From a phage: DNA of 64,000 nt. The DNA lies in sequence record PQ724394.1; one strand, written 5' to 3'. Within the stretch, counting starts at the first letter, position 1. Each line of letters begins with the position of its first letter. A program made the position numbers and the translations under genes. This document shows positions 14,432-51,304 of this stretch, piece after piece. The notes beneath the pieces are model-generated. The model saw only the letters and a program-made list of their open reading frames with translations. It was not told where the DNA came from and searched no databases.

Positions 14432-14439
14432 TATAAATA
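14432..14439 (+). promoter_or_regulatory. T4-type late promoter (TATAAATA) for gene 13
   Basis: Exact TATAAATA about 21 nt upstream of the gene 13 ATG. Confidence 0.6.
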
Positions 14440-14460
14440 CGGTTATTAGAGGAATAAAAC

Positions 14461-15396
14461 ATGGCAAGTGAATCATATAACCCTAAGCAACTCAAGGACG
14501 CTATTCTGCGCCGCCTGGGTGCACCGATTACAAATATTGAAGTAACTACTGACCAAGTGTATGATTGCATCCAGAGGGCCTTAGAGCTCTACGGCGAATA
14601 CCATTATAACGGGTATAACAAAGGTTATCAGGCTTTTTATATCGGCCATGACGATGAAGAAAAATTCCGTAATGGTGTATTCGACCTTAAAGGACGTAAT
14701 ATATTTGCAGTAACACAAATTTTGAGAACTAACGTTGGTTCTTTAACATCTATGGATGGGCAAGCAACTTATCCATGGTTTACAGATTTTGTACTAGGTT
14801 TGGCAGGTATTAATGGTGGCCTTGGGTCTTCATGTAATAGTTTTGGACCTAATGCCTTCGGCGCCGACCTTGGTTATTTCACACAATTAATGCAATATCG
14901 TTCTATGATGCAAGACCTTTTGGTTCCTCTGCCTGATTATTGGTATAATGATGCCACTGAACAATTAAAGGTAATGGGCAACTTTGTTAAAGGCGACTTT
15001 ATTGTAATTGAAGTTTATACCCGTTCATTTAATGGTGTTGATTCCATGGTTGGGAATACAGCAGGATATGGATATGCTTCTGGTGGCTGTGACGAAAATG
15101 AATGGAGCCCTGGGGCTATTTGGGACAATCCTGCACGTCGAATTTCAGGAATGAGAGCTGGTGAGGACCTTGGACTACAAGATGGGGCGTATAATAACCG
15201 TTGGGTCAAAGATTACGCTACAGCATTAGTTAAAGAGGTCAATGGTAATATTTTAGCCAAACACCAAGGTATGCAATTAGCTGGCGGAACCACTGTAGAT
15301 GGCATTCGATTGATTGAAGAAGCTCGTTTAGAAAAAGAACGTCTTCGCGAAGAATTAGATTTGCTCGACCCACCAACACCTATTTTAATTGGATAA
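14461..15396 (+). CDS. 13: neck protein gp13
   Basis: 311 aa (T4 gp13 309 aa); synteny; GAGG ribosome-binding site. Confidence 0.8.
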
Positions 15397-15398
15397 TT

Positions 15399-16172
15399 AT
15401 GGCTACTTTCGATTCGAGTTTATTTGCTAAGCTGGAAAATAACACCGGCTATGCTAACACGAACGAAACTGAAATAATGAACCCTTTCGTCAACTTTTAT
15501 CGCCATGAGAACACTCAAACATTGGCTGATGCTTTAGTTGCTGAGTCTATTCAAATGCGTGGTATCGAGCTTTATTATATACCACGCGAATACGTTAATC
15601 CTGACCAGCTATTTGGCGAAGACCTTCAGAACAAATTTACTAAAGCCTGGAAGTTTGCAGGTTATTTGGATTCCTTTGAAGGTTATTCCGGTGACAATAC
15701 TTATTTCAGTAAGTTCGGTATGATGGTTAATGATGAGGTAACAATCACAATTAACCCTAACCTTTTTAAACATCAATGCAACGGTACTGAACCTGTTTCA
15801 GGTGACTTGATTTATTTCCCTATGGACAATAGTCTATTTGAAATTAACTGGGTTCAACCTTACGACCCATTCTATCAAGTCGGTACAAACGTCCAGCGTC
15901 GCATTACTGCTACCAAGTTCATTTATAATGGTGAGGAACTTCGTCCTGAATTACAGAGAAATGAAGGCATTAATATTCCTGAATTCAGTGAGCTTGATTT
16001 AATGCCTGTTAAAAATATCGACGGGTTGGCTGACATCTCTGATATCCAATATGAAGAGGTTAATGAGATTAATGCTGAAGCAGCGGAATTCGTACACCCT
16101 TATGTAGTGATTAACGGTAGAGGAGAAGATGCTCCTCCTACAGCATTTGATGATGCTTTTTTAGATGATTAA
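15399..16172 (+). CDS. 14: neck protein gp14
   Basis: 257 aa (T4 gp14 256 aa); synteny. Confidence 0.8.
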
Positions 16173-16180
16173 ATAATACA

Positions 16181-16201
16181 TGGCGCATCCCGCGCCATTT
16201 T
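16181..16201 (+). terminator. terminator-like hairpin after gene 14
   Basis: tggcgc-atccc-gcgcca followed by tttt. Confidence 0.5.
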
Positions 16202-16211
16202 AGGAGGTTTG

Positions 16212-17074
16212 ATGTTTGGACATTGGTATAATAGTTCGCTACGTCGCTATATTGTTTTGATGGGTGATTTATTTTCCCATGTTCAAGTAGCACGTCAAAG
16301 AGAAGATACAGGGCTTAAATTTATTAAGGTTCCTATTACGTATGCTTCTAAAGAAAGATTTATGGCTAACTTAGGTAAATGGACGGCAGTACAGAATATC
16401 CCAAATCCTAATATGACGCCAAAAGAAAGAGCTGAACAAAAAGCTAAGGTGGAAACTGTTCTTCCACGTATGAACCTCCAAATGGTTGACATGCTTTATA
16501 ACTCACAATACAAAACAGCTCTTCAAAATAGAACACAAATTCAATTTGAGAATGGGGACCCTCGTAAACGAGTCAGCCAATATTCTCCTACTCCAGTAAA
16601 AATGATTTTTGAACTGGGTATTTACACTAGAACTCAAGATGATATGTTCCAGATTGTGGAACAAATTATGCCGTATTTCCAACCTCACTTTAATACAACA
16701 ATTACCGAACTCTATACAAACGAAATTAAATTTGACCGTGATATTCGTATTGTGTTCCAATCTATAGCAATGGACGAACAATTAGAAGGTGATACCACTT
16801 CACGTCGTCGCTTAGAATGGTCTATGATGTTTGAGGTTAACGGATGGCTATATCCTCCTGTTAAAGAAATGGAAGGCGAAATCAAAACCATTTATCTTGA
16901 TTTCTTTGCCAACTCTAAAGAACTCGCTCCTGAAGGTAATTTTGAATCGGTTGATAGCGAAGTGGTTCCTAGAGGTGTAGAAGAAAAAGAATGGGACGGT
17001 AAGTCCATTCAAACATATTCACAAGATATTCCGGTGCCTGTTGAACCAGAACCTCCAGCACCAAGGAGAAACCC

Positions 17075-17078
<4 letters not shown>
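16212..17078 (+). CDS. 15: tail sheath stabiliser / tail completion protein gp15
   Basis: ATG at 16212 preceded by AGGAGG; N-terminus [13 protein letters not shown] resembles T4 gp15; 288 aa. Confidence 0.8.
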
Positions 17079-19388
<2,310 letters not shown>

Positions 19389-19417
19389 ACAATAAAGCAT
19401 AACCAAGAGGATTCAAA

Positions 19418-21400
19418 ATGGCTTTATTATCACCGGGCATTGAGCTCAAAGAAACGTCCGTACAGAGTACTGTCGTTCGTAACGCAACGGGTCGTGCAGC
19501 GCTGGTTGGTAAATTCCAGTGGGGCCCTGCTTTCCAGGTAACTCAGATTACCAATGAAGTTGAACTGGTTGATTTGTTTGGAGGTCCTAATAACGAAGTA
19601 GCAGATTACTTTATGTCTGGTATGAACTTCCTCCAGTATGGTAATGACCTTCGTACAGTTCGTGTCGTTAGTCGCGAATTTGCTAAAAACGCATCTCCTA
19701 TCGCTGGTAATATTGAAACCACTATTACTACGGCTGGTTCCAACTATGCTGTAGGCGATAAAATTAATATTAAATATAACCAAACTGTAGTCGAATCTGA
19801 AGGTCGTGTGACTTCTGTAGATACAGACGGTAAAATTCTTTCTGTGTTTATTCCGTCAGCAAAAATTATTGCTTACGCACGTTCTTTAAACCAGTATCCT
19901 ACCCTAGGCCCGGCTTGGACTGCTGAAGTTACTTCTGCCTCTTCGGGTGTTTCTGGTACTATTACCGTCGGCCAAATTGTTACCGATTCCGGCATTCTTT
20001 TGACTGAAGCTGAGAATAGTGAAGAAGCTATTACTTCTCTTGAATTCCAAGCGGCCCTTAAGAAATTTGCTATGCCAGGCGTAGTGGCCCTTTATCCTGG
20101 TGAAATTGGTTCTACTCTGGAAGTAGAAATCGTTTCTAAAGCAGCTTATGAAGCCGGTTCTTCTAAAATGTTGGATGTTTATCCTGGTGGTGGTACCCGT
20201 GCTTCTATTGCCAAGGCAGTATTTAATTACGGACCTCAAACAGATGACCAATATGCCATTATCGTTCGTCGCGATGGCGCTATCGTAGAATCAGTCGTAC
20301 TTTCCACCAAAGAAGGTGAAAAAGACGTTTACGGTAATAACATTTATCTTGACGACTATTTCGCTAAAGGTACTTCTAATTACATCTATGCTACCTCGTT
20401 AAACTGGCCGAAAGGATTTAGCGGTATCATTAATCTGTCCGGTGGTATTTCCGCCAACGATAAAGTTACTGCAGGCGATTTGATGCAGGGTTGGGATTTG
20501 TTTGCCGACCGTGAAGCACTCCATATTAACCTGCTTATTGCTGGTGCTGTTGCCGGTGAAGGCGATGAAGTGGCTTCTACTGTTCAGAAACACGTTGTGA
20601 GTATTGCTGATGAACGTCAGGATTGCTTAGCATTTATTTCTCCTCCTAAAGGTCTGTTGGTTAACGTTCCACTTACTCGTGCAGTAGATAACCTTATCGA
20701 CTGGCGTACCGGTGCCGGTAATTTCGATGCCAACAACATGAACATCAGTACCACTTATGCCGCTATTGATGGTAACTATAAATATCAATACGACAAATAT
20801 AACGACGTAAACCGTTGGGTACCACTGGCTGCCGATTTGGCTGGTTTGTGTGCACGTACTGATGATGTGTCTCAGCCTTGGATGTCTCCTGCCGGTTATA
20901 ACCGTGGTCAGATTCTTAACGTTCTGAAATTGGCAATTGAACCACGTCAAGCACAACGTGACCGCATGTACCAGGAAGCTATTAACCCAGTTGTTGGTTT
21001 TGCTGGTGGTGATGGTTTCGTATTGTTTGGTGATAAGACTGCAACTAAAGTTCCATCTCCGATGGACCATATTAACGTTCGCCGTCTGTTCAACATGCTT
21101 AAGAAAAATATAGGTGATGCCTCTAAATATAAACTGTTTGAATTGAACGATAACTTCACTCGTTCAAGCTTCCGTATGGAAGTTTCTCAGTACTTAGATG
21201 GTATTAAGGCACTTGGTGGGATTTATGAAGGACGTGTGGTTTGTGATACTACAGTGAACACCCCTGCGGTTATCGACCGTAATGAGTTTATTGCTAATAT
21301 ATACATCAAACCTGCGAGATCGATAAATTACATCACGTTGAACTTCGTTGCAACGAGCACTGGTGCTGATTTTGATGAATTGATTGGACCTTTAGTATAA
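19418..21400 (+). CDS. 18: tail sheath protein gp18
   Basis: 660 aa (T4 gp18 659 aa); AGAGGA ribosome-binding site; synteny. Confidence 0.9.
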   Translation: MALLSPGIELKETSVQSTVVRNATGRAALVGKFQWGPAFQVTQITNEVELVDLFGGPNNEVADYFMSGMNFLQYGNDLRTVRVVSREFAKNASPIAGNIETTITTAGSNYAVGDKINIKYNQTVVESEGRVTSVDTDGKILSVFIPSAKIIAYARSLNQYPTLGPAWTAEVTSASSGVSGTITVGQIVTDSGILLTEAENSEEAITSLEFQAALKKFAMPGVVALYPGEIGSTLEVEIVSKAAYEAGSSKMLDVYPGGGTRASIAKAVFNYGPQTDDQYAIIVRRDGAIVESVVLSTKEGEKDVYGNNIYLDDYFAKGTSNYIYATSLNWPKGFSGIINLSGGISANDKVTAGDLMQGWDLFADREALHINLLIAGAVAGEGDEVASTVQKHVVSIADERQDCLAFISPPKGLLVNVPLTRAVDNLIDWRTGAGNFDANNMNISTTYAAIDGNYKYQYDKYNDVNRWVPLAADLAGLCARTDDVSQPWMSPAGYNRGQILNVLKLAIEPRQAQRDRMYQEAINPVVGFAGGDGFVLFGDKTATKVPSPMDHINVRRLFNMLKKNIGDASKYKLFELNDNFTRSSFRMEVSQYLDGIKALGGIYEGRVVCDTTVNTPAVIDRNEFIANIYIKPARSINYITLNFVATSTGADFDELIGPLV

Positions 21401-21525
21401 TCTATTATCCCAGGCTGTAATATAAAGAACCTAAAACCATTATACCATGTGTTTGGTTACAGCGTACATCACGTAGAATTGCGCCTGGGAGTGATTAACT
21501 ATCAGGAATATGATTTATCAACTGT

Positions 21526-21533
21526 TATAAATA
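21526..21533 (+). promoter_or_regulatory. T4-type late promoter (TATAAATA) for gene 19
   Basis: Exact TATAAATA in the 173-bp 18-19 intergenic region. Confidence 0.55.
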
Positions 21534-21546
21534 AATTAATCAGAAC

Positions 21547-21567
21547 GTTCCTGGTGTGGCCAGGAAC
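21547..21567 (+). other. 5'-leader hairpin between the late promoter and the gene 19 start
   Basis: Perfect inverted repeat gttcctgg-tgtgg-ccaggaac about 18 nt upstream of the ATG at 21586. Confidence 0.5.
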
Positions 21568-21585
21568 TGACTTATGAGGCATCCC

Positions 21586-22077
21586 ATGGAGTTGACAGAT
21601 ATCACTCGTGCGTTTGAGTCAGGTGACTTTGCACGCCCTAACCTTTTCGAAGTGGAAATTCCATTTCTTGGTAAAAACTTTAGCTTTAAATGTAAAGCAG
21701 CACCTATGCCGGCAGGCATTGTAGAAAAAGTACCGGTTGGCTACATGAACCGTAAAATTAACGTAGCCGGTGACCGTACGTTTGATGATTGGACCATTAC
21801 CATTTATAACGATGATGCCCATGACACCCGTCAGGCAATTGTCGATTGGCAAAACCTCTGCCATGGTATGACCAATGAAATTACCGGTGCTGCACCTGCA
21901 GAATATAAGAAACAAGCAGTAGTTCGTCAGTTCCATCGTGACGGTAAGACTGTGACTAAAGAAGTTACAATTTATGGCTTATGGCCTACTAACGTTGGTG
22001 AAGTCCAGATGGATTGGGATTCAAACAACGAGGTAGAAACTTTCGAATCTACGTTCGCTATCGATTGGTGGGAATGA
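21586..22077 (+). CDS. 19: tail tube protein gp19
   Basis: Start at second ATG (21586) gives 163 aa matching T4 gp19; N-terminal DITRAFESGDFARPNLF matches T4; GAGG ribosome-binding site. Confidence 0.9.
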   Translation: MELTDITRAFESGDFARPNLFEVEIPFLGKNFSFKCKAAPMPAGIVEKVPVGYMNRKINVAGDRTFDDWTITIYNDDAHDTRQAIVDWQNLCHGMTNEITGAAPAEYKKQAVVRQFHRDGKTVTKEVTIYGLWPTNVGEVQMDWDSNNEVETFESTFAIDWWE

Positions 22078-22078
22078 G

Positions 22079-22086
22079 TATAAATA
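22079..22086 (+). promoter_or_regulatory. T4-type late promoter (TATAAATA) for gene 20
   Basis: Exact TATAAATA directly after the gene 19 stop. Confidence 0.55.
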
Positions 22087-22096
22087 GAATTATAAA

Positions 22097-22110
22097 GGAG
22101 CTTCGGCTCC
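22097..22110 (+). other. UUCG-tetraloop hairpin in the 19-20 intergenic region
   Basis: ggagc-ttcg-gctcc; likely partial terminator or RNA stability element downstream of the highly expressed gene 19. Confidence 0.5.
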
Positions 22111-22134
22111 TTATCCCATTCATCGGAGACTCTA

Positions 22135-23709
22135 ATGGCAAACTTTAATACAATATTAAGTTTTCTTAAGCCATGGGCTAATGAAGACGAAAAAGAATAT
22201 AAACAACAATTAAATAACAATTTAGAGTCTGTCACTGCACCTAAGCTTGATGATGGCGCTCGCGAAATTGAAACCCAAGAGCAAAATATTCCTTATAACG
22301 CTCTTATGCAACAAATGTTTGGTAGTAATGAGCCTGAAGTTAAAAACACCAGGGAACTCATTGATACCTACCGTAATTTGATGAACAACTATGAAGTCGA
22401 TAACGCAGTTCAAGAAATTGTGTCTGACGCTATTGTCTACGAGGATGATAAAGAAGTAGTTGCATTAAATTTAGACGGGACAGATTTCAGTCAATCAATT
22501 AAAGATAAAATTTTGGCTGAATTTAGTGAAGTTTTGAATCTTTTAAATTTCCAACGTAAAGGCACCGACCATTTCCAACGTTGGTATGTAGACTCGAGAA
22601 TATTCTTTCATAAAATTATAAACCCTAAAAAAATGAAAGATGGTATACAAGAGCTCCGTCGTTTAGACCCTCGCCAACTCCAATATATCCGTGAAATTGT
22701 TACACGTATGGAAGATGGTGTTAAAATTGTAGATGGATACCGCGAGTTTTTCGTTTACGATACTGGTCATGAAAGTTATTGTGCTGATGGACGCATTTAT
22801 TCAGCTGGGACTAAAGTTAAAATTCCTCGTGCTGCTGTAGTTTATGCACATTCTGGGTTATTGGATTGTTGTGGTAAAAACATCATTGGCTATTTGCAAC
22901 GTGCTATTAAGCCTGCAAACCAGCTTAAATTGATGGAAGATGCAATGGTCATCTATCGTATTACCCGTGCTCCTGACCGTCGTGTATTTTATATCGATAC
23001 AGGAAATATGCCTTCTCGTAAGGCTGCAGCACAAATGCAACATATCATGAACACGATGAAAAACCGTGTGGTATATGATGCTTCGACCGGTAAAATTAAA
23101 AACCAGCAACATAATATGTCAATGACCGAAGACTATTGGTTGCAACGTCGAGACGGTAAAGCGGTAACAGAAGTTGATACCATGCCTGGAGCCACAGGTA
23201 TGAGTGATATGGATGACGTTCTTTATTTCCGCACAGCACTTTATCGTGCGCTGCGTATCCCAGAGTCGCGCATCCCTAGTGAATCTAATTCCGGTGTTAT
23301 GTTTGATGCTGGTACGGCTATAACTCGTGATGAGTTGAAATTTGCTAAATGGATTCGACAGCTCCAAAATAAATTTGAAGAAATTTTCTTAGACCCATTA
23401 AAAACAAACCTCATTCTTAAAAAGATTATTACAGAAGATGAGTGGGAAAGAGAAATAAATAATATTAAAGTTACGTTCAACCGTGATAGCTATTTCAGTG
23501 AAATGAAAGATGCGGAAATCATGGAACGCAGAATCAATATGCTAACGATGGCTGAACCATTTATTGGTAAGTATATTTCACATCAAACGGCTATGAAAGA
23601 TTTCCTTCAGATGACTGACGAAGAAATTAATCAAGAAGCTAAGCAAATTGAAGAAGAGTCTAAAGAGGCTCGTTTCCAAAACCCAGATGAAGAAGAAGAG
23701 GATTTCTAA
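22135..23709 (+). CDS. 20: portal vertex protein gp20
   Basis: 524 aa, same as T4 gp20; synteny. Confidence 0.9.
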
Positions 23710-23984
23710 TGGAAGATTTAATCGAAGCTATTAAATCAAACGACCTCGTAGCAGTTCGTAAAGCAGCAGCCCCGCTTATCGAATCTCGAGTAGCCGCTTT
23801 GATTGAAGCCCGTAAAGCAGAAATTGCTCGCTCCGTTATGATTGAAGGCGAAGAAGCCGACGAAGATGACGAAGACGAAGATAAAGACGAAAAATCCGAT
23901 AAAGCAGATAAGAAAGACAAAAAAGAATCTGACGATGCGGATGAAGGTGATGACGGCGATGATGAAGACGAGGACGACGAATAA
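23709..23984 (+). CDS. 67: prohead core protein gp67 (acidic)
   Basis: 91 aa with strongly acidic C-terminus; position between 20 and 68; ATGA-type overlap. Confidence 0.7.
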
Positions 23985-24412
23985 TGTTCCTTATCCCTGA
24001 TGATTACGAATTAACTCTAGAAAGCGTAGAGGCCAAAATTCCAGAAGCACAGGGACGTTTTGCTACTCTTTCTGAAGCCCTCGAGAAAAGCGATATAAAT
24101 AATCTTGTAGAGAACATGATTGCTGATGGTGATATCGATACCGCTATTGCCATCGCCTCTTTGAATGAAAATATGGCTCTTAACGAATTTATCGTTAAGC
24201 ACGTCTCTTCTAAAGGTGAGCTTACTCGTACTAAAGATATTAAAACCCGTCAACGCAACGCTTATCAAACGACCGGGTTGTCTAAAGCAAAACGCCGTCA
24301 GATTGCTCGCAAAGCATCTAAAACCAAACGTGCTAATCCATCTATTCAAGTACGTGCCGAACGTAAGCGTAAGAAAGCTCGTTCTAAACGTAAAGCCTTT
24401 GGACTTAACTAA
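23984..24412 (+). CDS. 68: prohead core protein gp68
   Basis: 142 aa (T4 gp68 141 aa); synteny. Confidence 0.7.
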
Positions 24413-25047
24413 TGAAACCTGAATTGCTCATCGAACATTGGGGACAACCAGGTGAAATTATCGATGGGGTTCCGATGTTGGAATCTCATGATGGAAAAGA
24501 TTCTGGACTTGCCCCAGGCCTTTATATAGAAGGCATATTCATGCAAGCCGAAGTGGTTAACCGTAATAAACGCCTTTATCCGAAACCTATTTTGGAAAAA
24601 GCTGTTGCTGATTATATGGCAGAACAGGTTGCTACTAAACAAGCTTTAGGAGAATTAAATCATCCGCCTCGTGCTAACGTCGACCCTATGCAAGCCGCTA
24701 TTATTATTGAAGATATGTGGTGGAAAGGTAATGACGTTTATGGACGTGCTCGTATTATTGAAGGCGACCATGGTCCTGGTGATAAACTAGCTGCTAATAT
24801 TAGAGCCGGTTGGGTGCCTGGTGTTAGTTCTCGTGGTCTAGGTTCTTTAACCGAAACCAATAAAGGATATAAGCGTGTAAACGAAGGTTATAAATTAACC
24901 GTCGGTGTTGATGCAGTATGGGGTCCATCTGCTCCTGATGCTTATGTAACTCCTAAACAAATTACAGAATCACAAACGGTAGATACCGATACCAGTGCCG
25001 ATGACGCCTTTATGGCTCTCGCAGAGGCCATGAAAAAAGCGTTATAA
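24412..25047 (+). CDS. 21: prohead core protease gp21
   Basis: 211 aa (T4 gp21 212 aa); synteny directly upstream of scaffold and capsid genes. Confidence 0.85.
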   Translation: MKPELLIEHWGQPGEIIDGVPMLESHDGKDSGLAPGLYIEGIFMQAEVVNRNKRLYPKPILEKAVADYMAEQVATKQALGELNHPPRANVDPMQAAIIIEDMWWKGNDVYGRARIIEGDHGPGDKLAANIRAGWVPGVSSRGLGSLTETNKGYKRVNEGYKLTVGVDAVWGPSAPDAYVTPKQITESQTVDTDTSADDAFMALAEAMKKAL

Positions 25048-25050
25048 ATA
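25043..25050 (+). promoter_or_regulatory. T4-type late promoter (TATAAATA) for gene 22
   Basis: Exact TATAAATA overlapping the gene 21 stop, about 28 nt upstream of the gene 22 ATG. Confidence 0.6.
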
Positions 25051-25077
25051 TTATTATCTAAACAACAGGACTACAAA

Positions 25078-25893
25078 ATGCTTAAAGAACAACTGATCGC
25101 CGAAGCACAGAATATTGATGCTTCCGTTGCTCTTGACAGTATTTTCGAATCAGTTAATATTTCTCCGGAAGCAAAAGAAACTTTCGGCACTGTATTCGAA
25201 GCTACCGTCAAGCAACATGCCGTTAAACTGGCTGAATCTCACATCGCTAAAATCGCTGAAAAAGCGGAAGAAGAAGTTGAGAAAAATAAAGAAGAAGCTG
25301 AAGAAAAAGCTGATAAGAAAATCCAAGAAGCTGCCGGTCGTTTCCTTGACCATGTTGCTAAAGAATGGATGGCTGAAAACCAGCTGGCTGTTGATAAAGG
25401 TATTAAAGCCGAACTGTTCGAATCCATGTTGATGGGTATGAAAGAACTGTTTGTTGAACATAACGTGGTTGTTCCAGAAGAAGCAGTAGACGTTGTCGCT
25501 GAAATGGAAGAAGAATTGGCTGAACAGAAAGCTGAAACCGCTCGTTTGTTCGAAGAAGTTGGCAAGCGTGACGCATATATTAATTACGTACAGCGTGAAC
25601 AAGCTGTTATGGAAGCAACTAAAGACCTGACTGAATCTCAGAAAGAAAAAGTTAGTTCTCTGGTAGAAGGCATGGATTATTCCGATGCATTTGGTAAAAA
25701 AATTGGCGCTATCGTTGAAATGGTTAAAGGCCAGACTGACGTTGAAAAACCAATCACCGAAGCCGCTATAAATAAAACTGAAGACGATGCTGCAGCACTG
25801 AATTACATTTCGGAAGCAGTTGAAGAAAAAGGCGCTAAGCCTACCCTGTCCTTCGCGGACCTGTCTGCAATCGCAGCATCTCGAATTTCTTAA
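25078..25893 (+). CDS. 22: prohead scaffolding core protein gp22
   Basis: 271 aa, Glu/Lys/Ala-rich coiled-coil; T4 gp22 269 aa; synteny. Confidence 0.85.
   Translation: MLKEQLIAEAQNIDASVALDSIFESVNISPEAKETFGTVFEATVKQHAVKLAESHIAKIAEKAEEEVEKNKEEAEEKADKKIQEAAGRFLDHVAKEWMAENQLAVDKGIKAELFESMLMGMKELFVEHNVVVPEEAVDVVAEMEEELAEQKAETARLFEEVGKRDAYINYVQREQAVMEATKDLTESQKEKVSSLVEGMDYSDAFGKKIGAIVEMVKGQTDVEKPITEAAINKTEDDAAALNYISEAVEEKGAKPTLSFADLSAIAASRIS
25767..25774 (+). promoter_or_regulatory. candidate late promoter for gene 23 located inside the 3' end of gene 22
   Basis: Exact TATAAATA about 140 nt upstream of the gene 23 ATG; no TATAAATA in the short 22-23 intergenic spacer. Confidence 0.35.
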
Positions 25894-25914
25894 TTTAATA
25901 AGGTTATACAACAC

Positions 25915-27474
25915 ATGAAAAAGAATGCATTAGTTCAAAAATGGTCCGCTCTGCTGGAAAACGAAGCTCTTCCTGAAATCGTTGGTGCTTCTAAACAAGC
26001 TATCATCGCTAAAATTTTCGAAAACCAGGAACAAGACATCCTGACTGCTCCGGAATACCGTGACGAAAAAATCTCTGAAGCATTTGGTTCTTTCCTGACC
26101 GAAGCTGAAATCGGTGGTGACCATGGTTATGATGCTACCAATATTGCAGCGGGCCAGACCTCTGGTGCTGTAACTCAGATTGGGCCGGCAGTAATGGGTA
26201 TGGTTCGTCGTGCTATTCCTCATCTGATTGCTTTTGATATTTGTGGTGTTCAGCCTCTGAATAACCCTACCGGCCAGGTATTTGCACTGCGTGCAGTATA
26301 TGGTAAAGACCCTATCGCTGCAGGCGCTAAAGAAGCTTTCCATCCGATGTATGCTCCGAATGCTATGTTCTCTGGTCAGGGCGCTGCTCAGACTTTTGAA
26401 GCACTGGCTGCAGGTAAAGTTCTGGAAGTTGGTAAAATTTATTCTCACTTCTTCGAATCTACCGGTTCTGCACACTTCCAGGCTGTTGAAGCCGTAACCG
26501 TTGATGCTGCTGCTACCGATGCTGCTAAACTGGATGTTGCCGTAACTGCTCTGTTGGAAGCTGGCCAGCTGGCTGAATTGGCTGAAGGTATGGCTACTTC
26601 TATCGCTGAACTTCAGGAAGGCTTTAACGGTTCTCAGGACAACCCGTGGAACGAAATGGGCTTCCGTATCGATAAACAAGTTATCGAAGCTAAATCCCGT
26701 CAGCTGAAAGCAAGCTATTCCATCGAACTGGCACAGGACCTTCGTGCAGTACACGGTATGGATGCAGATGCTGAACTGTCCGGTATCCTTGCTACCGAAA
26801 TTATGCTCGAAATCAACCGTGAAGTTATCGATTGGATTAACTACTCTGCACAGGTTGGTAAATCTGGTATGACCAACACCGTTGGCGCTAAAGCTGGTGT
26901 GTTTGACTTCCAGGACCCGATTGATATCCGTGGTGCTCGTTGGGCCGGTGAGAGCTTTAAAGCCCTTCTGTTCCAGATTGATAAAGAAGCAGCCGAAATC
27001 GCTCGTCAGACCGGTCGTGGTGCTGGTAACTTCATCATCGCTTCCCGTAACGTAGTTAACGTACTGGCTGCAGTTGATACTTCTGTAAGTTATGCAGCTC
27101 AAGGTCTGGGTCAGGGTTTCAACGTTGACACAACCAAAGCAGTATTTGCCGGTGTTCTTGGTGGTAAATATCGTGTTTACATCGACCAGTATGCTCGTTC
27201 CGATTACTTCACCATCGGTTATAAAGGTTCCAACGAAATGGACGCAGGTATCTACTATGCTCCGTACGTTGCACTGACTCCGCTGCGTGGTTCCGATCCG
27301 AAGAACTTCCAACCGGTAATGGGCTTCAAAACTCGTTACGGTATCGGTATTAACCCGTTCGCTGACCCAGCTGCTCAGGCACCTACCAAACGTATTCAGA
27401 ATGGTATGCCGGACATCGTTAACAGCCTTGGTCTGAATGGTTACTTTAGACGTGTATATGTGAAAGGTATCTAA
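25915..27474 (+). CDS. 23: major capsid protein gp23
   Basis: 519 aa (T4 gp23 521 aa); strongly biased codon usage and Ala/Gly-rich sequence typical of a highly expressed capsid protein; synteny. Confidence 0.95.
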   Translation: MKKNALVQKWSALLENEALPEIVGASKQAIIAKIFENQEQDILTAPEYRDEKISEAFGSFLTEAEIGGDHGYDATNIAAGQTSGAVTQIGPAVMGMVRRAIPHLIAFDICGVQPLNNPTGQVFALRAVYGKDPIAAGAKEAFHPMYAPNAMFSGQGAAQTFEALAAGKVLEVGKIYSHFFESTGSAHFQAVEAVTVDAAATDAAKLDVAVTALLEAGQLAELAEGMATSIAELQEGFNGSQDNPWNEMGFRIDKQVIEAKSRQLKASYSIELAQDLRAVHGMDADAELSGILATEIMLEINREVIDWINYSAQVGKSGMTNTVGAKAGVFDFQDPIDIRGARWAGESFKALLFQIDKEAAEIARQTGRGAGNFIIASRNVVNVLAAVDTSVSYAAQGLGQGFNVDTTKAVFAGVLGGKYRVYIDQYARSDYFTIGYKGSNEMDAGIYYAPYVALTPLRGSDPKNFQPVMGFKTRYGIGINPFADPAAQAPTKRIQNGMPDIVNSLGLNGYFRRVYVKGI

Positions 27475-27490
27475 GACCTAACCTTATTAT

Positions 27491-27520
27491 GGGAGACTTC
27501 GGTCTCCCATTCTTGTTTCT
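27491..27520 (+). terminator. terminator hairpin after gene 23
   Basis: gggagac-ttcg-gtctccc followed by a T-rich tail. Confidence 0.65.
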
Positions 27521-27523
27521 GTA

Positions 27524-27790
27524 CTATGCAATCTTAACTCGACGGTTGATGATATCACGGAAGTCAATACGATTTTCTTGGATTTTAAGCCAGTTACCAG
27601 ATTTGTCTTTGGTATGGGTAGAATATTCGCCGTTCCACCAGAAGTCGGTTTCATAAGCCAGAGCTTCGTATTTCTTAACCAATGCATTAACTGCATTACC
27701 GTTAGGATTGGAACCATATTTTTCTACCAGAGCTTTGATGTCTTTGTCAAGGTTAGAAAGCGTGGTACGGATAAAGTTTAATTTGTTCAT
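27524..27790 (-). CDS. hypothetical small protein (88 aa) at the 23/24 junction
   Basis: Minus-strand ORF; internal ATG at 27790 preceded by AGGAGA; own sigma70-like promoter upstream. Confidence 0.5.
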   Translation of the reverse strand: MNKLNFIRTTLSNLDKDIKALVEKYGSNPNGNAVNALVKKYEALAYETDFWWNGEYSTHTKDKSGNWLKIQENRIDFRDIINRRVKIA

Positions 27791-27819
27791 TTTTAATCTC
27801 CTCATGTTTTGATAGGACT

Positions 27820-27849
27820 ATAGTAACACGTGGGAACCTTGCTGTAAAC
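27820..27849 (-). promoter_or_regulatory. sigma70-like early promoter candidate (GTTTAC-N18-TACTAT)
   Basis: Minus strand: GTTTAC (27849-27844), 18-nt spacer, TACTAT (27825-27820); same architecture recurs at 31845-31874 and 46843-46872. Confidence 0.45.
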
Positions 27850-27855
27850 AACTTT

Positions 27856-27863
27856 TATAAATA
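27856..27863 (+). promoter_or_regulatory. T4-type late promoter (TATAAATA) for gene 24
   Basis: Exact TATAAATA about 29 nt upstream of the gene 24 ATG. Confidence 0.6.
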
Positions 27864-46489: not shown

Positions 46490-46496
46490 CAAAAAA

Positions 46497-46517
46497 GGAG
46501 AGCTTACGCTCTCCTTT
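46497..46517. terminator. bidirectional terminator between gene 54 and the convergent minus-strand early block
   Basis: ggagagc-ttac-gctctcc with A-run upstream and T-rich downstream. Confidence 0.7.
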
Positions 46518-46523
46518 AGGGGT

Positions 46524-46814
46524 TTATTTACGGAACGAGATAAAACCTGCGGCGGTCATTAATGGCTGCTTTTTAACAAAGACCGTGATAGAAATAGGAG
46601 CTTCAGATTCAAGCTGGCCGGTTACTACACCATTAAAGATATTTTCAGTTTGTTCGGGTTGTGAAAAATTTTCAACCGGGCGTAAGTCAAACTGTTTGTC
46701 TTTGCCGAAAACTCGACGTAATTCATTACCGACTGCACTGTCGAACTCTTCAGAAGCAGGGATAACGTTTTCAACTACCAGCTCTTGACCATTAAAACGG
46801 AATGCAGATTTCAT
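46524..46814 (-). CDS. hypothetical protein (96 aa)
   Basis: Minus-strand ORF with leader ACATGAGGAGA and its own GTTTAC-N18-TACTAT promoter; position corresponds to the T4 alt.-1/-2 region. Confidence 0.5.
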   Translation of the reverse strand: MKSAFRFNGQELVVENVIPASEEFDSAVGNELRRVFGKDKQFDLRPVENFSQPEQTENIFNGVVTGQLESEAPISITVFVKKQPLMTAAGFISFRK

Positions 46815-46842: not shown

Positions 46843-46872
46843 ATAGTACCACATCCTTGTGGCGTTGTAAAC
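46843..46872 (-). promoter_or_regulatory. sigma70-like early promoter candidate (GTTTAC-N18-TACTAT)
   Basis: Minus strand: GTTTAC (46872-46867, overlapping the first Alt-like gene stop), 18 nt, TACTAT (46848-46843). Confidence 0.45.
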
Positions 46873-48995
46873 TACATTTTGAATTTATTTGATAAAGAAG
46901 AGATGTCCAAAGATGCAGCAAGGATTTCCATAGCCTCATTACTTTCTGAAACAGATTCTGAAACTAGGAATTCTTTAAACCCATTCATCAATTTAACTTC
47001 ACCGGTTTCCATCAGATGGTCGCCATCGTAAACGGATTCGCTGAGTTCTGAAGGAGATGTCACTGTAGCTTCCATAAGGTATTTGTGAGATACTCTATCA
47101 TTCATAGCAAAAGCCGCTACTTTATCAACCTTCAACAATAACCCGCGCGGAAGGATAATTTCCGCTTCTTCGGCATATTCTGTAAGGTCGCCAGGAGCGA
47201 TAACTTTAACTGCTTCAGCACCTCGAATAACCATACCAATTTCAGCAATCCTGTCTGCAGGGCCTTCAGGTGCAATTGGATTACCAAACTCGTCTTCTTC
47301 CCATTCTACCTCTTCGTCATCGACTTCACCTACGTCAGATGAACTACCACTGGCTAATTTAAACAACTCATCAGCGGAGGATAAAGAACCTTCATCACCG
47401 ACAAAAACTGCTTGGTTGTCGAGGGCCATATAATTTTTACCAAATTCGCCAAAGATATTAGGCTTTAATGAAGCGGACACAAAGTTCTTAAAGTAAAAGG
47501 TTTTGTTATCAATATTATGGCGCAGAATTTTGTATGGTAAATCCTGACCACGATACAAAATAGTACCCTTAGGAAGTTTAATACCCTTGGTAAATGCCGA
47601 GTCTAAATCCTTAATCAATTTAATAGCTGTTGTATTGTTTTCGGATTCAGGTTTACCTAAAAGGAATAAGTTCATAGGAGCATATTCAGCCGCACAATAT
47701 TCAATAATGGCATTACTTTCGTCTTTGGTCAAGCCCTTAGGTTTAATGAGCTCGCCTGAATAAGCATATGCATCGCTAATAGAATCGTTAATCAGTTTAT
47801 AAACGGCTTCCATAGCGAAAGCAATTCGAGATGCTTTCTCTGAAGGAGACCCCTGAAAACGGGCACTCAGGTTATTAACAATTCTCTTAATAATATCCAG
47901 ACTATTGGTAGTATTGATTTGAGAAAGACCGCTTAAAAGTCTATCGACTTCCGTATTAAAAAATGCCATATTATTAGAGTAAATTTCAAACCCTTGTTTA
48001 TCTCTATTAGCATAATTTAGTTTAAATTTACTATCAGTCATTAAAGCGTGCGTGAGAGCAATGGTGTATCTAAAGTTGGCAAGGTCCTCACTCTTAGATT
48101 TAAACTGAGAGGCCTGTCGCATTTTAGTAATAGAACCTTTTTTAAAGTTCTGGCTAATCTGCTCAATACCTTCGTTCTCAGGGCCTTCGGCCGAGTGAAC
48201 AGGGACAGAAGCTTCAAACTCGTTATAAATCTGCAATTCTTTAGGTGATAAAGTTTCGGGTTCGGCAGTAGAATACTGCGCCGCTGCAGCCATACGACGG
48301 GAAATCTTAGTACGAGAAATAACAGCCTTATCGGTACGTTTCTCTTCAACCTGTGCAATAGATGCCGCTACGGCTTCTACTTTACTTACGGCCTGGCCGG
48401 TTTTCTTAGAAACATAAACTTCACCGACTTTAGACTCAACCTTGGTATAAAGGTCTGCATCAATTTCAGGCATACCCTTGATATCTTCGATATTAGAACC
48501 ACGACGTACTAAAAGAACGTAGGTATGTTTACCACTAAACTGGAACATATCATCGACAACTTTAAACTTACCACCGGTACGTGCCATCACCAAACGAGCT
48601 AATACACGCTGAACGGTAGGACCCTTACCTTTCATTTTCTTGGTAGGGAAACGGAACAAAACTGCATCCATTTTAAGTTTGTTTACTTGTTCGTATACGG
48701 TATCGAAAATAGTATTCAGTGTACCAAGTGGGTCAGAACCAAGCCCACCTTTGAGTTCAGCCGGAGCACCCTTGCTAGACAAACTCATTAAAATAATATG
48801 AACGTATTTGTCGCCAGGCTTAACCATTTTAATAGCGTCTCCTTGAGACGCATAAGATACCATACGAGCAACCAGGTTATCATTACCTGGTGCTTGGATA
48901 GAGAAAATCTGTGGGATACCTGAGCCTGGCTTAAGATTTGTTACTGGATAGTTTTTAGCTGAATCACTATCAAAAACTTCGTTTAAATTTTCCAT
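46872..48995 (-). CDS. alt: Alt-like ADP-ribosyltransferase paralogue 1
   Basis: 707 aa; R-S-E motifs in the C-terminal half (LYRGQ, FVSAS, EAEIILPRG); position between gene 54 and DNA ligase as for T4 alt (682 aa). Confidence 0.7.
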   Translation of the reverse strand: MENLNEVFDSDSAKNYPVTNLKPGSGIPQIFSIQAPGNDNLVARMVSYASQGDAIKMVKPGDKYVHIILMSLSSKGAPAELKGGLGSDPLGTLNTIFDTVYEQVNKLKMDAVLFRFPTKKMKGKGPTVQRVLARLVMARTGGKFKVVDDMFQFSGKHTYVLLVRRGSNIEDIKGMPEIDADLYTKVESKVGEVYVSKKTGQAVSKVEAVAASIAQVEEKRTDKAVISRTKISRRMAAAAQYSTAEPETLSPKELQIYNEFEASVPVHSAEGPENEGIEQISQNFKKGSITKMRQASQFKSKSEDLANFRYTIALTHALMTDSKFKLNYANRDKQGFEIYSNNMAFFNTEVDRLLSGLSQINTTNSLDIIKRIVNNLSARFQGSPSEKASRIAFAMEAVYKLINDSISDAYAYSGELIKPKGLTKDESNAIIEYCAAEYAPMNLFLLGKPESENNTTAIKLIKDLDSAFTKGIKLPKGTILYRGQDLPYKILRHNIDNKTFYFKNFVSASLKPNIFGEFGKNYMALDNQAVFVGDEGSLSSADELFKLASGSSSDVGEVDDEEVEWEEDEFGNPIAPEGPADRIAEIGMVIRGAEAVKVIAPGDLTEYAEEAEIILPRGLLLKVDKVAAFAMNDRVSHKYLMEATVTSPSELSESVYDGDHLMETGEVKLMNGFKEFLVSESVSESNEAMEILAASLDISSLSNKFKM

Positions 48996-48998
48996 TAT

Positions 48999-51083
48999 TT
49001 ACCCTTGGATGAATTTTTCTGGTATGTCATAGAGGTCTATGCATGAAGCCAAAAGTGGCAGTACGTCAAACCGTGTAGATTTAACAAATGAATCAAAAGA
49101 TACAGGGCTTTCGGAAGTATCGAAGTCATCTTGGTATACAACCAATTCACCAGTTTCCATTAGTACGTCACCATCATACACCACAGATTCTTGAAGCTCA
49201 TCTGTGGTCATAACTTCGGCTTGAACGAGTTTTGTATTACTAGATGTTGTTCCGTCATTATTAGAGGCATCGGTTATTTTATTAACTTTGACCATCAATC
49301 CACGCGGTAGAATAACTTCAGCTTCTGTTGCTATTCCGAGACTTCCTGGATATACAACATTAACTTTATGGGCTCCATCAATTGCCCATCCTATTTGAAC
49401 TTTAACGTAATCAGGGTTTTCTTTATACGCTCTTATTTCATTAGGATTAATGGTTATTCCTTCTTCATTTTTATCGACTGTCAATTCATTGCGAACTTCC
49501 GGTTCTAAAAGACCGACACCCGCGTGTGTAACACCAAAACGACCAAAAATGATAGGAGTCAGTGAAGTAGATACAAAATTTCTAAAATAAAATACCTTAT
49601 TTTTAACTAGTGCTTCGTATATAGGAGCAGTCATACTTTGAGCACGATAAACTGTAATGCCTTCTGGTATACGGTCACCATTTTCAAAAGCTGAATCAAG
49701 ATTATTAACAGCAGATTCAATAGACCTTTCATTCATTACATCATAGTTCTGAGGATTATAACGTCCTAAAAGAAGATTATTGATGTCGGTATAACCTGAG
49801 CCGCAGTATTCTCTGATGCCGCGCTTTTGTGATGGGGTGTATTTAGAACCATCGCGAGCAATAGTAATATCGACCATAATACCACCGCCTACACCAGCAA
49901 AACTATATACACGTTTTTTAATGAACTTGGTCTTGGCTGCTTTCCACTTGGACTCGGTTAATTCATTCCAGACGTCGTCAGGCTGACCTTTACGAGTTTT
50001 GTTATGTATAGCCAGCCATTCGCCTTTATATTCTTCAAAAACTGTATTAATAACAGAGGCATACTTTTCTAGAGCTTTAACAGATGTCAAAGGTTCGTTT
50101 TTGATGGCTGTAAGAATTCTCTCTTTAATTTTCTCTTGGATTTCACCTATACCGTGAAGAGGAAACATTTTATATTCATAATGCAACTCTTCAGCAGTGC
50201 CTTCAGCTACTATATTAGCAACTTTATTTTTAGCCGCAGGAGAATTGTTATTGGTGACCATTTCCTGTGCCTCAGGGATTAATGGAGCTGTTGCAGGTTT
50301 ATTAAAATCTGCTGCAGTAGCTTCATATTTCTTAAACAGTTCACTTTCATTACGATAAGATTCTAAAGACTGACTTGCTGCAATAGCGCGACGAGAAATC
50401 TTAGTCTTGGTTATAACCATTTTATCAGTGCGACGTTCTTCAACTTTAGCAATACTGCCGGCAATAGCAGTTTCTTTAGTAACCTGCACACCTTCTTTTT
50501 TAGAAATATAAACTTCACCAACATCAGAATCTACCTTAGTATATAATTCGGCATTAATTCCTGGCATACCTTTGATATCTTCAATATCAGCTTGTTTACG
50601 AACTACTAGGATATAAGTATGTTTACCGGTAAATTGGTACATGGCTGGAACTACTTTAAAACGTCCACCGGTTTTCTGTGCTACCAAACGTTGGATAATC
50701 CGTTGGACGATAGGTCCTTGTCCTTTCATTTTCTTGGTTGGAAAACGGAACATCACAGCATCCATACGAAGCTTTTTAACTTGTTCGAATACTACGTCGA
50801 AAATGGTATTAATAGCATCAATAGGAGTAGGGCCTAAGCCGCCTTTAAGTTCGGCTGGAGAACCTTTAGCTGAAAGGCTCATAAGGATGACGTGGGCGTA
50901 TTTATCACCTAATTTAACCTGTTTAATAGCATCGCCTTCAGAGGCATAAGATACCATACGGGCCACTAATTGGGATTCGGCGTCGCCAATCTTCCAAATC
51001 TGCGGTACTTTAAGTTTTGGGTTTAAGTTTACAGTAGGCAGGGTGCCTTCAGACTCAAACACTTCATTTAATTGTTCGGTCAT
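48999..51083 (-). CDS. Alt-like ADP-ribosyltransferase paralogue 2
   Basis: 694 aa; N-terminal ~140 aa highly similar to paralogue 1; R-S-E motifs (VYRAQ, FVSTS, EAEVILPRG). Confidence 0.7.
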   Translation of the reverse strand: MTEQLNEVFESEGTLPTVNLNPKLKVPQIWKIGDAESQLVARMVSYASEGDAIKQVKLGDKYAHVILMSLSAKGSPAELKGGLGPTPIDAINTIFDVVFEQVKKLRMDAVMFRFPTKKMKGQGPIVQRIIQRLVAQKTGGRFKVVPAMYQFTGKHTYILVVRKQADIEDIKGMPGINAELYTKVDSDVGEVYISKKEGVQVTKETAIAGSIAKVEERRTDKMVITKTKISRRAIAASQSLESYRNESELFKKYEATAADFNKPATAPLIPEAQEMVTNNNSPAAKNKVANIVAEGTAEELHYEYKMFPLHGIGEIQEKIKERILTAIKNEPLTSVKALEKYASVINTVFEEYKGEWLAIHNKTRKGQPDDVWNELTESKWKAAKTKFIKKRVYSFAGVGGGIMVDITIARDGSKYTPSQKRGIREYCGSGYTDINNLLLGRYNPQNYDVMNERSIESAVNNLDSAFENGDRIPEGITVYRAQSMTAPIYEALVKNKVFYFRNFVSTSLTPIIFGRFGVTHAGVGLLEPEVRNELTVDKNEEGITINPNEIRAYKENPDYVKVQIGWAIDGAHKVNVVYPGSLGIATEAEVILPRGLMVKVNKITDASNNDGTTSSNTKLVQAEVMTTDELQESVVYDGDVLMETGELVVYQDDFDTSESPVSFDSFVKSTRFDVLPLLASCIDLYDIPEKFIQG

Positions 51084-51120
51084 AATAATTCCTCTTTAAT
51101 AACCGTATTTATGCCATAAA

Positions 51121-51134
51121 AGGCCCGAAGGCCT
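51121..51134 (-). other. UUCG-type hairpin upstream of the second Alt-like gene
   Basis: Plus aggcc-cgaa-ggcct, reading ggcc-UUCG-ggcc on the minus strand. Confidence 0.4.
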
Positions 51135-51304
51135 TAAAGTGGTAGCAACGTACGATATACTTCGAATGTCGGGCCTTTTTCATAGCCATCAAACATGTCT
51201 TTAAAATCGGCAAAAGCTATTTCATCCTCAAACTCTAGGATGATTTGAGAGGCCGCGGTGGTATTTGTATTTGTTACAACAATTGTTTCTAAATAAGCTT
51301 TCAT
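51134..51304 (-). CDS. hypothetical small protein (56 aa)
   Basis: ATG at 51304 lies 2 nt after the ligase stop; short. Confidence 0.35.
   Translation of the reverse strand: MKAYLETIVVTNTNTTAASQIILEFEDEIAFADFKDMFDGYEKGPTFEVYRTLLPL

Follow-up and report, generated by a model that had tools for sequence, protein, structure and literature searches.

The stretch of phage DNA analyzed in this work (sequence record PQ724394.1, 64,000 nt; hereafter the window, to which all window coordinates refer) carries two adjoining minus-strand open reading frames (ORFs) of 694 and 707 amino acids (aa), separated by a 3-nt spacer (Table 1). The pair was identified, by its sequence, as altA and altB of a JS10/NC-G-like T4-type coliphage of the genus Dhakavirus, two genes that have been annotated before, and as such it is not new; the names used here follow the annotation of phage JS10. 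The best explanation of the data taken as a whole, which we regard as highly probable, is that both genes are intact and encode head-packaged mono-ADP-ribosyltransferases of the T4 Alt family, that the tandem pair predates the split of Tequatrovirus and Dhakavirus, with T4 having lost most of its B copy, and that the N-terminal domain (N-domain) and the C-terminal propeptide (C-propeptide) would be genus-specific parts, between which the middle region and the ADP-ribosyltransferase (ART) domain, together referred to as the payload, would have been exchanged by recombination.

The altA/altB pair and its catalytic domains

The preliminary description of the window, which had proposed two adjacent minus-strand genes for Alt-like ADP-ribosyltransferases of 707 and 694 aa, was borne out with respect to both the ORFs and the family assignment. 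PHROG 802 ('Alt-like RNA polymerase ADP-ribosyltransferase') matched the proteins end to end (AltB 1-707 and AltA 1-693; E = 9e-251 and 1.3e-263), and Pfam PF03496 was found above the gathering score in both of them (E = 1e-17 and 1.5e-35); the NCBIfam search gave no match for either protein. The C-terminal R-S-E motifs pointed out previously (YRG/YRA, FVS-A/T-S, EAE-I/V-ILPRG) were all located, i.e., LYRG (R482), FVSAS (S507) and EAEIILPRG (E610-x-E612) in AltB, and VYRA (R480), FVSTS (S505) and EAEVILPRG (E587-x-E589) in AltA. Of 78 aligned homologues, all have the first Ser and both Glu residues, and 77 have the Arg. The E-x-E form of the ADP-ribosylating turn-turn (ARTT) motif is an arginine-specific signature in enzymes of the C2/iota/VIP2/ART2 type.

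The phmmer comparison with iota toxin Ia placed the 'VYRA' of AltA (R480) on the 'VYRR' of the toxin, and 'EAEV' (E587/E589) on 'EYEV'. The AlphaFold2 models of AltB (predicted local distance difference test score, pLDDT, 80.4; predicted template modeling score, pTM, 0.72) and AltA (pLDDT 83.4; pTM 0.73) both have a predicted C3/iota/Vis-type ART fold, with Vis as the best structural match, and the catalytic Arg and Glu are intact in both copies, as the earlier assignment implied. A search for a solved Alt structure yielded none, only weak matches to iota and CDT toxins. Taken together, these results support the classification of both AltA and AltB as Alt-family ADP-ribosyltransferases. The catalytic fold and the R, S-T-S and E-x-E residues are common to the Alt proteins and the R-S-E toxins C3, iota-Ia, VIP2, Vis and Certhrax, but the sequence identity is 12-25%, the toxins are devoid of the Alt-type N-domain, middle region and propeptides processed by gp21 (the prohead protease), and they enter by toxin translocation or secretion, whereas Alt enters by the phage head.

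The comparison of both paralogues revealed similarity far above chance at the two ends of the proteins. BLASTP of AltB against AltA showed 65% identity over residues 2-240 (E = 4e-104) and, for the last 300 residues, 34% (E = 3e-38), with no alignment over approximately residues 240-420, and in the global alignment the identity was 66% for residues 1-140, 66% for 1-240, 16% for 241-420, and 42% for the remainder. The ART domains are 36-42% identical, and the middle regions (12-16%) are unrelated by sequence, in agreement with the difference in central regions noted before. What has to be corrected is the claim of near-identical N-termini of ~140 aa: the N-terminal homology is indeed strong, but its identity is 66%, its longest identical stretch is 10 residues, and the homologous block ends only at ~aa 239. 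At the DNA level, the repeat is only ~71% identical, and at four-fold sites of identical residues in the N-domains 28 of 75 (37%) match, versus 35% expected from the base composition. Since these sites match at chance level, the copies are old and maintained by protein-level selection.

The whole 4.9-kb alt region resembles that of phage NC-G (97.7% nucleotide identity) and of Escherichia phage JS10 (96.7%; genus Dhakavirus), in which 'alta' (adjoining alt.1) and 'altb' are annotated, these labels being used also in IME08. JS10 (EU863409; ACL78420, ACL78419), NC-G and IME08 have the same genes, with the same lengths and the same neighbors, and they differ from the window by strain-level substitutions only (97-100% aa identity per domain). 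The window pair occupies the genomic position of alt (gene 30/alt.1 to alt.-3/gene 54): altA is preceded by alt.1 and the DNA ligase gene (gene 30), and altB is followed by an alt.-3 homolog and then by the opposite-strand genes 54, 48 and 29. C-terminal extension mutants of T4 Alt.-3 escape the CmdTAC defence system (PMC11618068). In the case of alt.1, a program-made 70-aa ORF starting from TTG 51346 overlaps the ligase gene.

Predicted processing, packaging and expression

As delimited from alignments and structural models, AltA and AltB are of one five-part build, i.e., N-terminal propeptide (6-7 residues, ending in LNE), basic N-domain (~230 aa), all-helical middle region (~180 aa), R-S-E-type ART domain and acidic C-propeptide (54-62 aa, following an LxE motif). 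The proteins start with MTEQLNEVF (AltA) and MENLNEVF (AltB), and the earlier suggestion that the shared LNEVF is a prohead-protease site gains support from homology. By mass spectrometry of T4 heads, Alt was found to be shortened by 6 residues at ITE-6 and by 63 residues at LTE-619, which results in a 68.2-kDa protein (PMC5694885; the processing is also covered in the review PMC9026906), and the mass computed by us for the T4 Alt sequence with these cut positions, 68.2 kDa, agrees with the published one. LNE↓VF of AltA and AltB (the arrow marks the cut) aligns with ITE↓LF of T4 Alt (MELITE↓L), and the LTE-619 site aligns with LQE-632↓SVVYDGD of AltA and LSE-653↓SVYDGD of AltB. Among the 78 homologues, the N-terminal site has L/I at P3 in 75 and E at P1 in 77, and the C-terminal site has L/I/V at P3 in 77 and E at P1 without exception (78 of 78). 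The enzyme trimming both Alt proteins is presumably the gp21 of the window itself (Table 1). With regard to processing, the additions made here are the equation of LNE↓VF with ITE-6 and the conservation of the LTE-619 site in both copies, as judged from the alignments.

The predicted mature AltA (residues 8-632) has 69.4 kDa and an isoelectric point (pI) of 8.9. Basic N-domains (pI 9.5-9.8) and acidic C-propeptides (pI 4.1-4.4) are common to AltA, AltB and T4 Alt, and the N-domain may act as a module for packaging and association with the prohead core. T4 Alt is present in ~40 copies per mature head and is injected with the DNA (PMC9026906), and it ADP-ribosylates the host RNA polymerase alpha subunit and other proteins (PMC9503650). 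In the literature search for a Dhakavirus virion proteome, none was found.

The search of the N-domain against Pfam at E ≤ 1 gave no match, and the best hit of its profile in PDB (E = 0.22) was noise. The domain is possibly GNAT-like. Membership in the GNAT acetyltransferases by sequence was rejected, as hhalign against a hand-entered sequence of E. coli RimI returned a probability of 0.05, and the conserved loop LKGGLGxxP has the G-x-G of GNAT motif A (Q/R-x-x-G-x-G/A), but without Q/R. The N-domain is rare, with 71 clusters among 1.84 billion representatives, and nearly all of them combine the N-domain, ART and C-propeptide. For homologues P0001-P0120, PF26846 is precomputed besides PF03496, and it may be a curated Alt N-domain family. 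In the distant proteins P0170 (1142 aa), P0169, P0172 and P0174, the Alt N-domain is represented by its first ~150 residues, with little or no ART: no ART match was detected in P0172 and P0174, and a weak partial one in P0169 and P0170. These four proteins suggest that the Alt frame may occasionally carry other payloads.

The middle region of AltA shows 12-13% identity to that of AltB, 35% to that of T4 Alt, and 66% to that of T2 Alt, and we infer that it is the target-recognition part of the payload.

Concerning expression, the altB ATG is located 3 nt past the altA stop codon and AAGGG is found within the last altA codons; altA and altB are presumably co-transcribed, with coupled translation. 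The hairpin after alt.-3 is probably the end of an altA-altB-alt.-3 transcription unit; apart from this terminator, sigma-70 promoter and terminator scans detected no more sites than in shuffled sequence. T4-like phages have a conserved terminator ahead of alt (PMC1524935), and a conserved hairpin was found upstream of altA. At the syntenic spot, the hairpin of T4 is the same and a perfect late promoter, TATAAATA, comes directly after it; the JS10 sequence agrees here with that of the window.

Table 1. Features of the alt region and the gp21 gene in the window (nucleotide positions on PQ724394.1; arrow, predicted cleavage)
Feature	Position	Strand	Characteristics
altA	48999..51083	-	694-aa Alt-type ADP-ribosyltransferase, A-type payload, counterpart of T4/T2 alt
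AltA N-terminal propeptide MTEQLNE	51063..51083	-	Predicted gp21 cleavage after E7 (LNE↓V)
AltA N-domain	50370..51062	-	aa 8-238; basic, alpha/beta, genus-specific
AltA all-helical middle region	49839..50369	-	aa ~239-415; model helices 248-407 at pLDDT >90
AltA ART catalytic domain	49188..49838	-	aa ~416-632; R480, S505-T-S507, E587-x-E589
AltA acidic C-terminal propeptide	49002..49187	-	aa 633-694, pI 4.05; predicted removal after LQE-632
altB	46872..48995	-	707-aa second Alt-type ADP-ribosyltransferase, B-type payload, counterpart of T2 'alt.-1'
AltB N-terminal propeptide MENLNE	48978..48995	-	Predicted gp21 cleavage after E6 (LNE↓V)
AltB N-domain	48276..48977	-	aa 7-240; first ~60 codons like the middle copy of three-copy relatives, rest like the last copy
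AltB all-helical middle region	47736..48275	-	aa 241-420; diagnostic of the B-type paralogue; model helices 251-417
AltB ART catalytic domain	47037..47735	-	aa 421-653; R482, S507-A-S509, E610-x-E612
AltB acidic C-terminal propeptide	46875..47036	-	aa 654-707; predicted removal after LSE-653
Conserved hairpin upstream of altA	51106..51133	-	GGCCTTCGGGCC (51133-51122), then CATAAATA (51113-51106)
Intrinsic-terminator-like hairpin after alt.-3	46494..46517	-	10-bp stem, then T-run
gp21 prohead protease gene	24412..25047	+	Pfam Peptidase_S77, E = 1.1e-103; adjoins the gp20, gp22 and gp23 genes
alt.-3 homolog	46524..46814	-	96 aa; Pfam DUF5498, E = 3e-34
alt.1 homolog	51134-51304	-	56 aa from ATG 51304 per JS10 annotation; Pfam PF24647 'Phage blade protein', E = 1e-21

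Distribution and modular evolution of the alt locus

Judging from the sequences compared, the tandem pair is the usual state of T-even phages and T4 is a decayed exception. The tblastn search with the AltB middle region indicated 44 records at 95-99% identity, the listed matches including JS10, IME08, dhabil and other Dhakavirus phages, and 402 records below 60% identity (~44-47% among the matches listed) with a coverage of at least 80%, T2, RB6, ime09 and phiD1 included; in total, 446 phage records, that of T2 among them, have a B-type middle domain. The 3-nt spacer and the synteny are common to T4 (alt/alt.-1), T2, JS10, MX01 and the window.

T2 (MH751506; AYD82792, AYD82791) has a full-length tandem pair like that of the window, its 'alt.-1' (685 aa, full length) following alt after a 3-nt spacer. 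T2 alt.-1 is the B-type ortholog of AltB (45% identity in the middle region and 58% in the ART), and T2 Alt has an A-type payload (66% in the middle region; ART 94% at the aa level and up to 98% at the nucleotide level, compared with AltA). The N-domain and C-propeptide of T2 are 99% and 94% identical, respectively, to those of T4 Alt, but only 42-47% and 37-52% to those of the window. T4 Alt (NP_049811) has the same five-part build, catalytic residues, locus, and upstream hairpin/promoter position, and its two mapped gp21 sites align with the predicted ones of the window; its identity to AltA is 46% in the N-domain, 35% in the middle region and 60-63% in the ART, and to AltB 42%, 15-17% and 38-39%, respectively.

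The earlier statement of a single alt in T4 at this locus is literally true, but T4 keeps a decayed second copy, alt.-1/alt.-2, at the position of the 707-aa gene, starting 3 nt past alt, and the gap between its alt and alt.-3 is only 421 nt. The T4 record itself describes alt.-1/alt.-2 as 'an old duplication of the first part of gene alt'. The alt.-1 and alt.-2 of T4 (L003:3066-3451) are together 87% identical to ~125 N-terminal residues of T2 alt.-1 (L004:3239-5296), and 56% to T4 Alt; because they match the N-terminus of T2 alt.-1, T4 has lost ~560 codons (~128 remain) of a B gene kept by T2. Duplications of alt are already in print for JS98, Bp7 and Ac42 (PMC4177764), as well as for RB49, 44RR and T4 (PMC1524935), and the literature search on the function of altB or alt.-1 yielded nothing.

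Moreover, Dhakavirus phages MX01, QL01, WG01, AnYang and C6 have three alt copies, of which the first and the last are orthologs of AltA and AltB (95-97% aa identity). The additional copy between them (MX01_195, 681 aa) combines a B-like N-domain with a payload of a third type, whose middle region is 15-23% identical, and whose ART/C-terminal part is 33-46% identical, to those of the other copies.

The relationships of the particular protein parts are in conflict with one another. The N-domains group by genus (window A/B 66%, T2 Alt/alt.-1 67-68%, cross-genus 42-47%), whereas the middle regions and ART domains group by paralogue type, i.e., AltB with T2 alt.-1 and AltA with T2 Alt. Among the 78 homologues, there are 22 pairs with N-domains at least 85% identical and ART domains at most 50% identical. 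The T2 alt gene (L004:1142-3235) is a mosaic: its codons 1-~235 and ~625-end are 95-100% identical at the nucleotide level to T4 alt (L003:3455-5503), and its codons ~460-610 are 86-98% identical to window altA (97-98% in the ART core), compared with no more than 52-75% to T4. The switches from one type to the other are located where the N-domain ends and close to the C-terminal gp21 site.

A mosaic structure was also found within altB when it was compared with the MX01 copies 194 and 195 (L002:1874-6046). The first ~180 nt of window altB show 90-98% identity to the middle copy and 67-83% to the last one, whereas from ~nt 450, within the ~750 nt compared, it is 87-95% identical to the last copy and 59-73% to the middle one, save for a ~90% patch at nt ~510-570; codons 241-707 are 93% identical at the nucleotide level to the last copy. 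Thus, altB (and altb of JS10) is chimeric relative to the three-copy relatives, which fits unequal recombination between the N-domain repeats. The distinction between a genus-specific frame and an exchanged payload, together with the chimeric AltB, constitutes what is added here, from sequence comparisons, to the knowledge of the evolution of this locus.

Alternative explanations and biological meaning

According to the explanation preferred by us, altA, altB and alt.-3 would be transcribed late as a single unit, AltA and AltB would be built into the prohead core, and gp21 would trim AltA after E7 and E632, and AltB after E6 and E653. The trimmed proteins would remain in the head, be injected with the DNA, and at once move ADP-ribose from NAD+ to arginines of host proteins. 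By analogy with T4 Alt, AltA would probably perform the classical modification of RNA polymerase alpha and related ones, and AltB probably modifies a set of targets different from that of AltA, because the middle regions are unrelated and the ART identity is only 36-42%.

Several observations weigh against this explanation. Packaging, cleavage, injection, enzymatic activity and targets would all be transferred to AltA and AltB by analogy with T4 Alt. T4 gets by without the B copy, and even alt itself is dispensable there (PMC9026906). The search of the window for the late promoter TATAAATA gave no perfect match close to the alt genes, CATAAATA standing in its place; such perfect motifs occur 15 times in the window versus 7.5 expected, 10 of them on the plus strand, in the head/tail structural block (14432-27863). 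The (L/I)xE pattern is short and occurs 7-13 times per protein, so that the evidence lies only in its alignment with the mapped T4 sites. The S-A-S of AltB (A508) is a minority variant of S-T-S, found in 3 of the 78 homologues, and AltB has an acidic, low-confidence (disordered) insertion at ~aa 535-582. Finally, the predicted mature AltB (residues 7-653; 71.2 kDa) has a pI of 5.8, versus 8.4-8.9 for AltA and T4 Alt, and for this reason its behavior in the DNA-filled head could differ.

Some of these points would be expected if AltB were a redundant, decaying duplicate without its own function, heading to the state of T4, which keeps only ~128 codons of the B copy; the dispensability of alt in T4, the S-A-S variant and the disordered insertion agree with this. 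We consider decay very unlikely, as the altB ORF is intact (707 aa) and retains all catalytic residues and both processing motifs, the identity of the proteins has persisted in spite of saturated synonymous sites, a sign of purifying selection, and the B-type gene is full-length in T2 (58% ART identity with the window), with its middle domain found across genera in the 446 records mentioned above. It might also be supposed that the N-terminal similarity of AltA and AltB comes from gene conversion between tandem repeats and not from selection on a shared packaging function, as the N-domains group by genome rather than by paralogue type and recombination inside the N-domain coding region is clear among B-type copies. 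Recent conversion between altA and altB is ruled out by the four-fold sites (37% versus 35%) and the ~71% DNA identity, and because these sites are at chance level and no high-identity DNA tract was found, any such event must be ancient. Lineage-specific co-adaptation with the capsid core is an explanation of equal merit, and conversion as the source of the similarity seems improbable to us.

The acidity of mature AltB, in comparison with the basic AltA and T4 Alt, could mean that only AltA is packaged, and that AltB is synthesized during infection and works in the cytoplasm, as ModA and ModB do. However, AltB keeps a basic N-domain (pI 9.8), LNE↓V, LSE↓S and the propeptide, which are sensible only for a prohead-core protein, and altB is translationally adjacent to altA within one unit, which leaves little room for a cytoplasmic AltB. 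A similarly low probability is assigned to AltB being not a protein-arginine ART but an enzyme for another class of substrate (nucleic acid, small molecule, RNAylation) or an anti-defence enzyme. The R-S-E clade is admittedly varied: Vis binds agmatine, and T4 ModB is reported to RNAylate proteins (bioRxiv 10.1101/2021.06.04.446905). The middle region and the acidic insertion of AltB are also without a counterpart in T4 Alt. On the other hand, the arginine-specific E-x-E signature is invariant here and the ART domain clearly belongs to the Alt family.

The finding of the tandem pair is in itself ordinary, as the genes are annotated and the duplication is in print, and the only points beyond routine interest are the exchange of cassettes and the absence from T4 of a widespread second effector. 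Somewhat more speculatively, and with slightly less confidence than doubt on our part, the T-even alt locus could be viewed as a polymorphic array of injected effectors, in which a genus-specific delivery frame carries swappable payloads and gives one to three differently targeted effectors, AltB/T2 alt.-1 being a second widespread class with targets other than RNA polymerase alpha. The frame would consist of the N-domain and the acidic C-propeptide, bounded by gp21 sites and co-adapted to the phage's own prohead core, and homologous recombination, both between neighboring copies and between genera, would add, remove and swap the middle-ART cassettes within it; the model phage T4 would simply happen to lack the B-type effector class.

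The apparent swapping of payloads between constant packaging parts points, moreover, to a natural design rule by which foreign enzymes could be loaded into T4-type heads. It should be stressed that the knowledge of injected phage ADP-ribosyltransferases is mostly T4-based, yet T4 has lost the B-type enzyme, which is retained by T2, by phages of the JS10 type and by several hundred further T-even records (as indicated by the tblastn search with the B-type middle region). Knowing the targets of AltB would widen the view of host reprogramming in the first seconds of infection.

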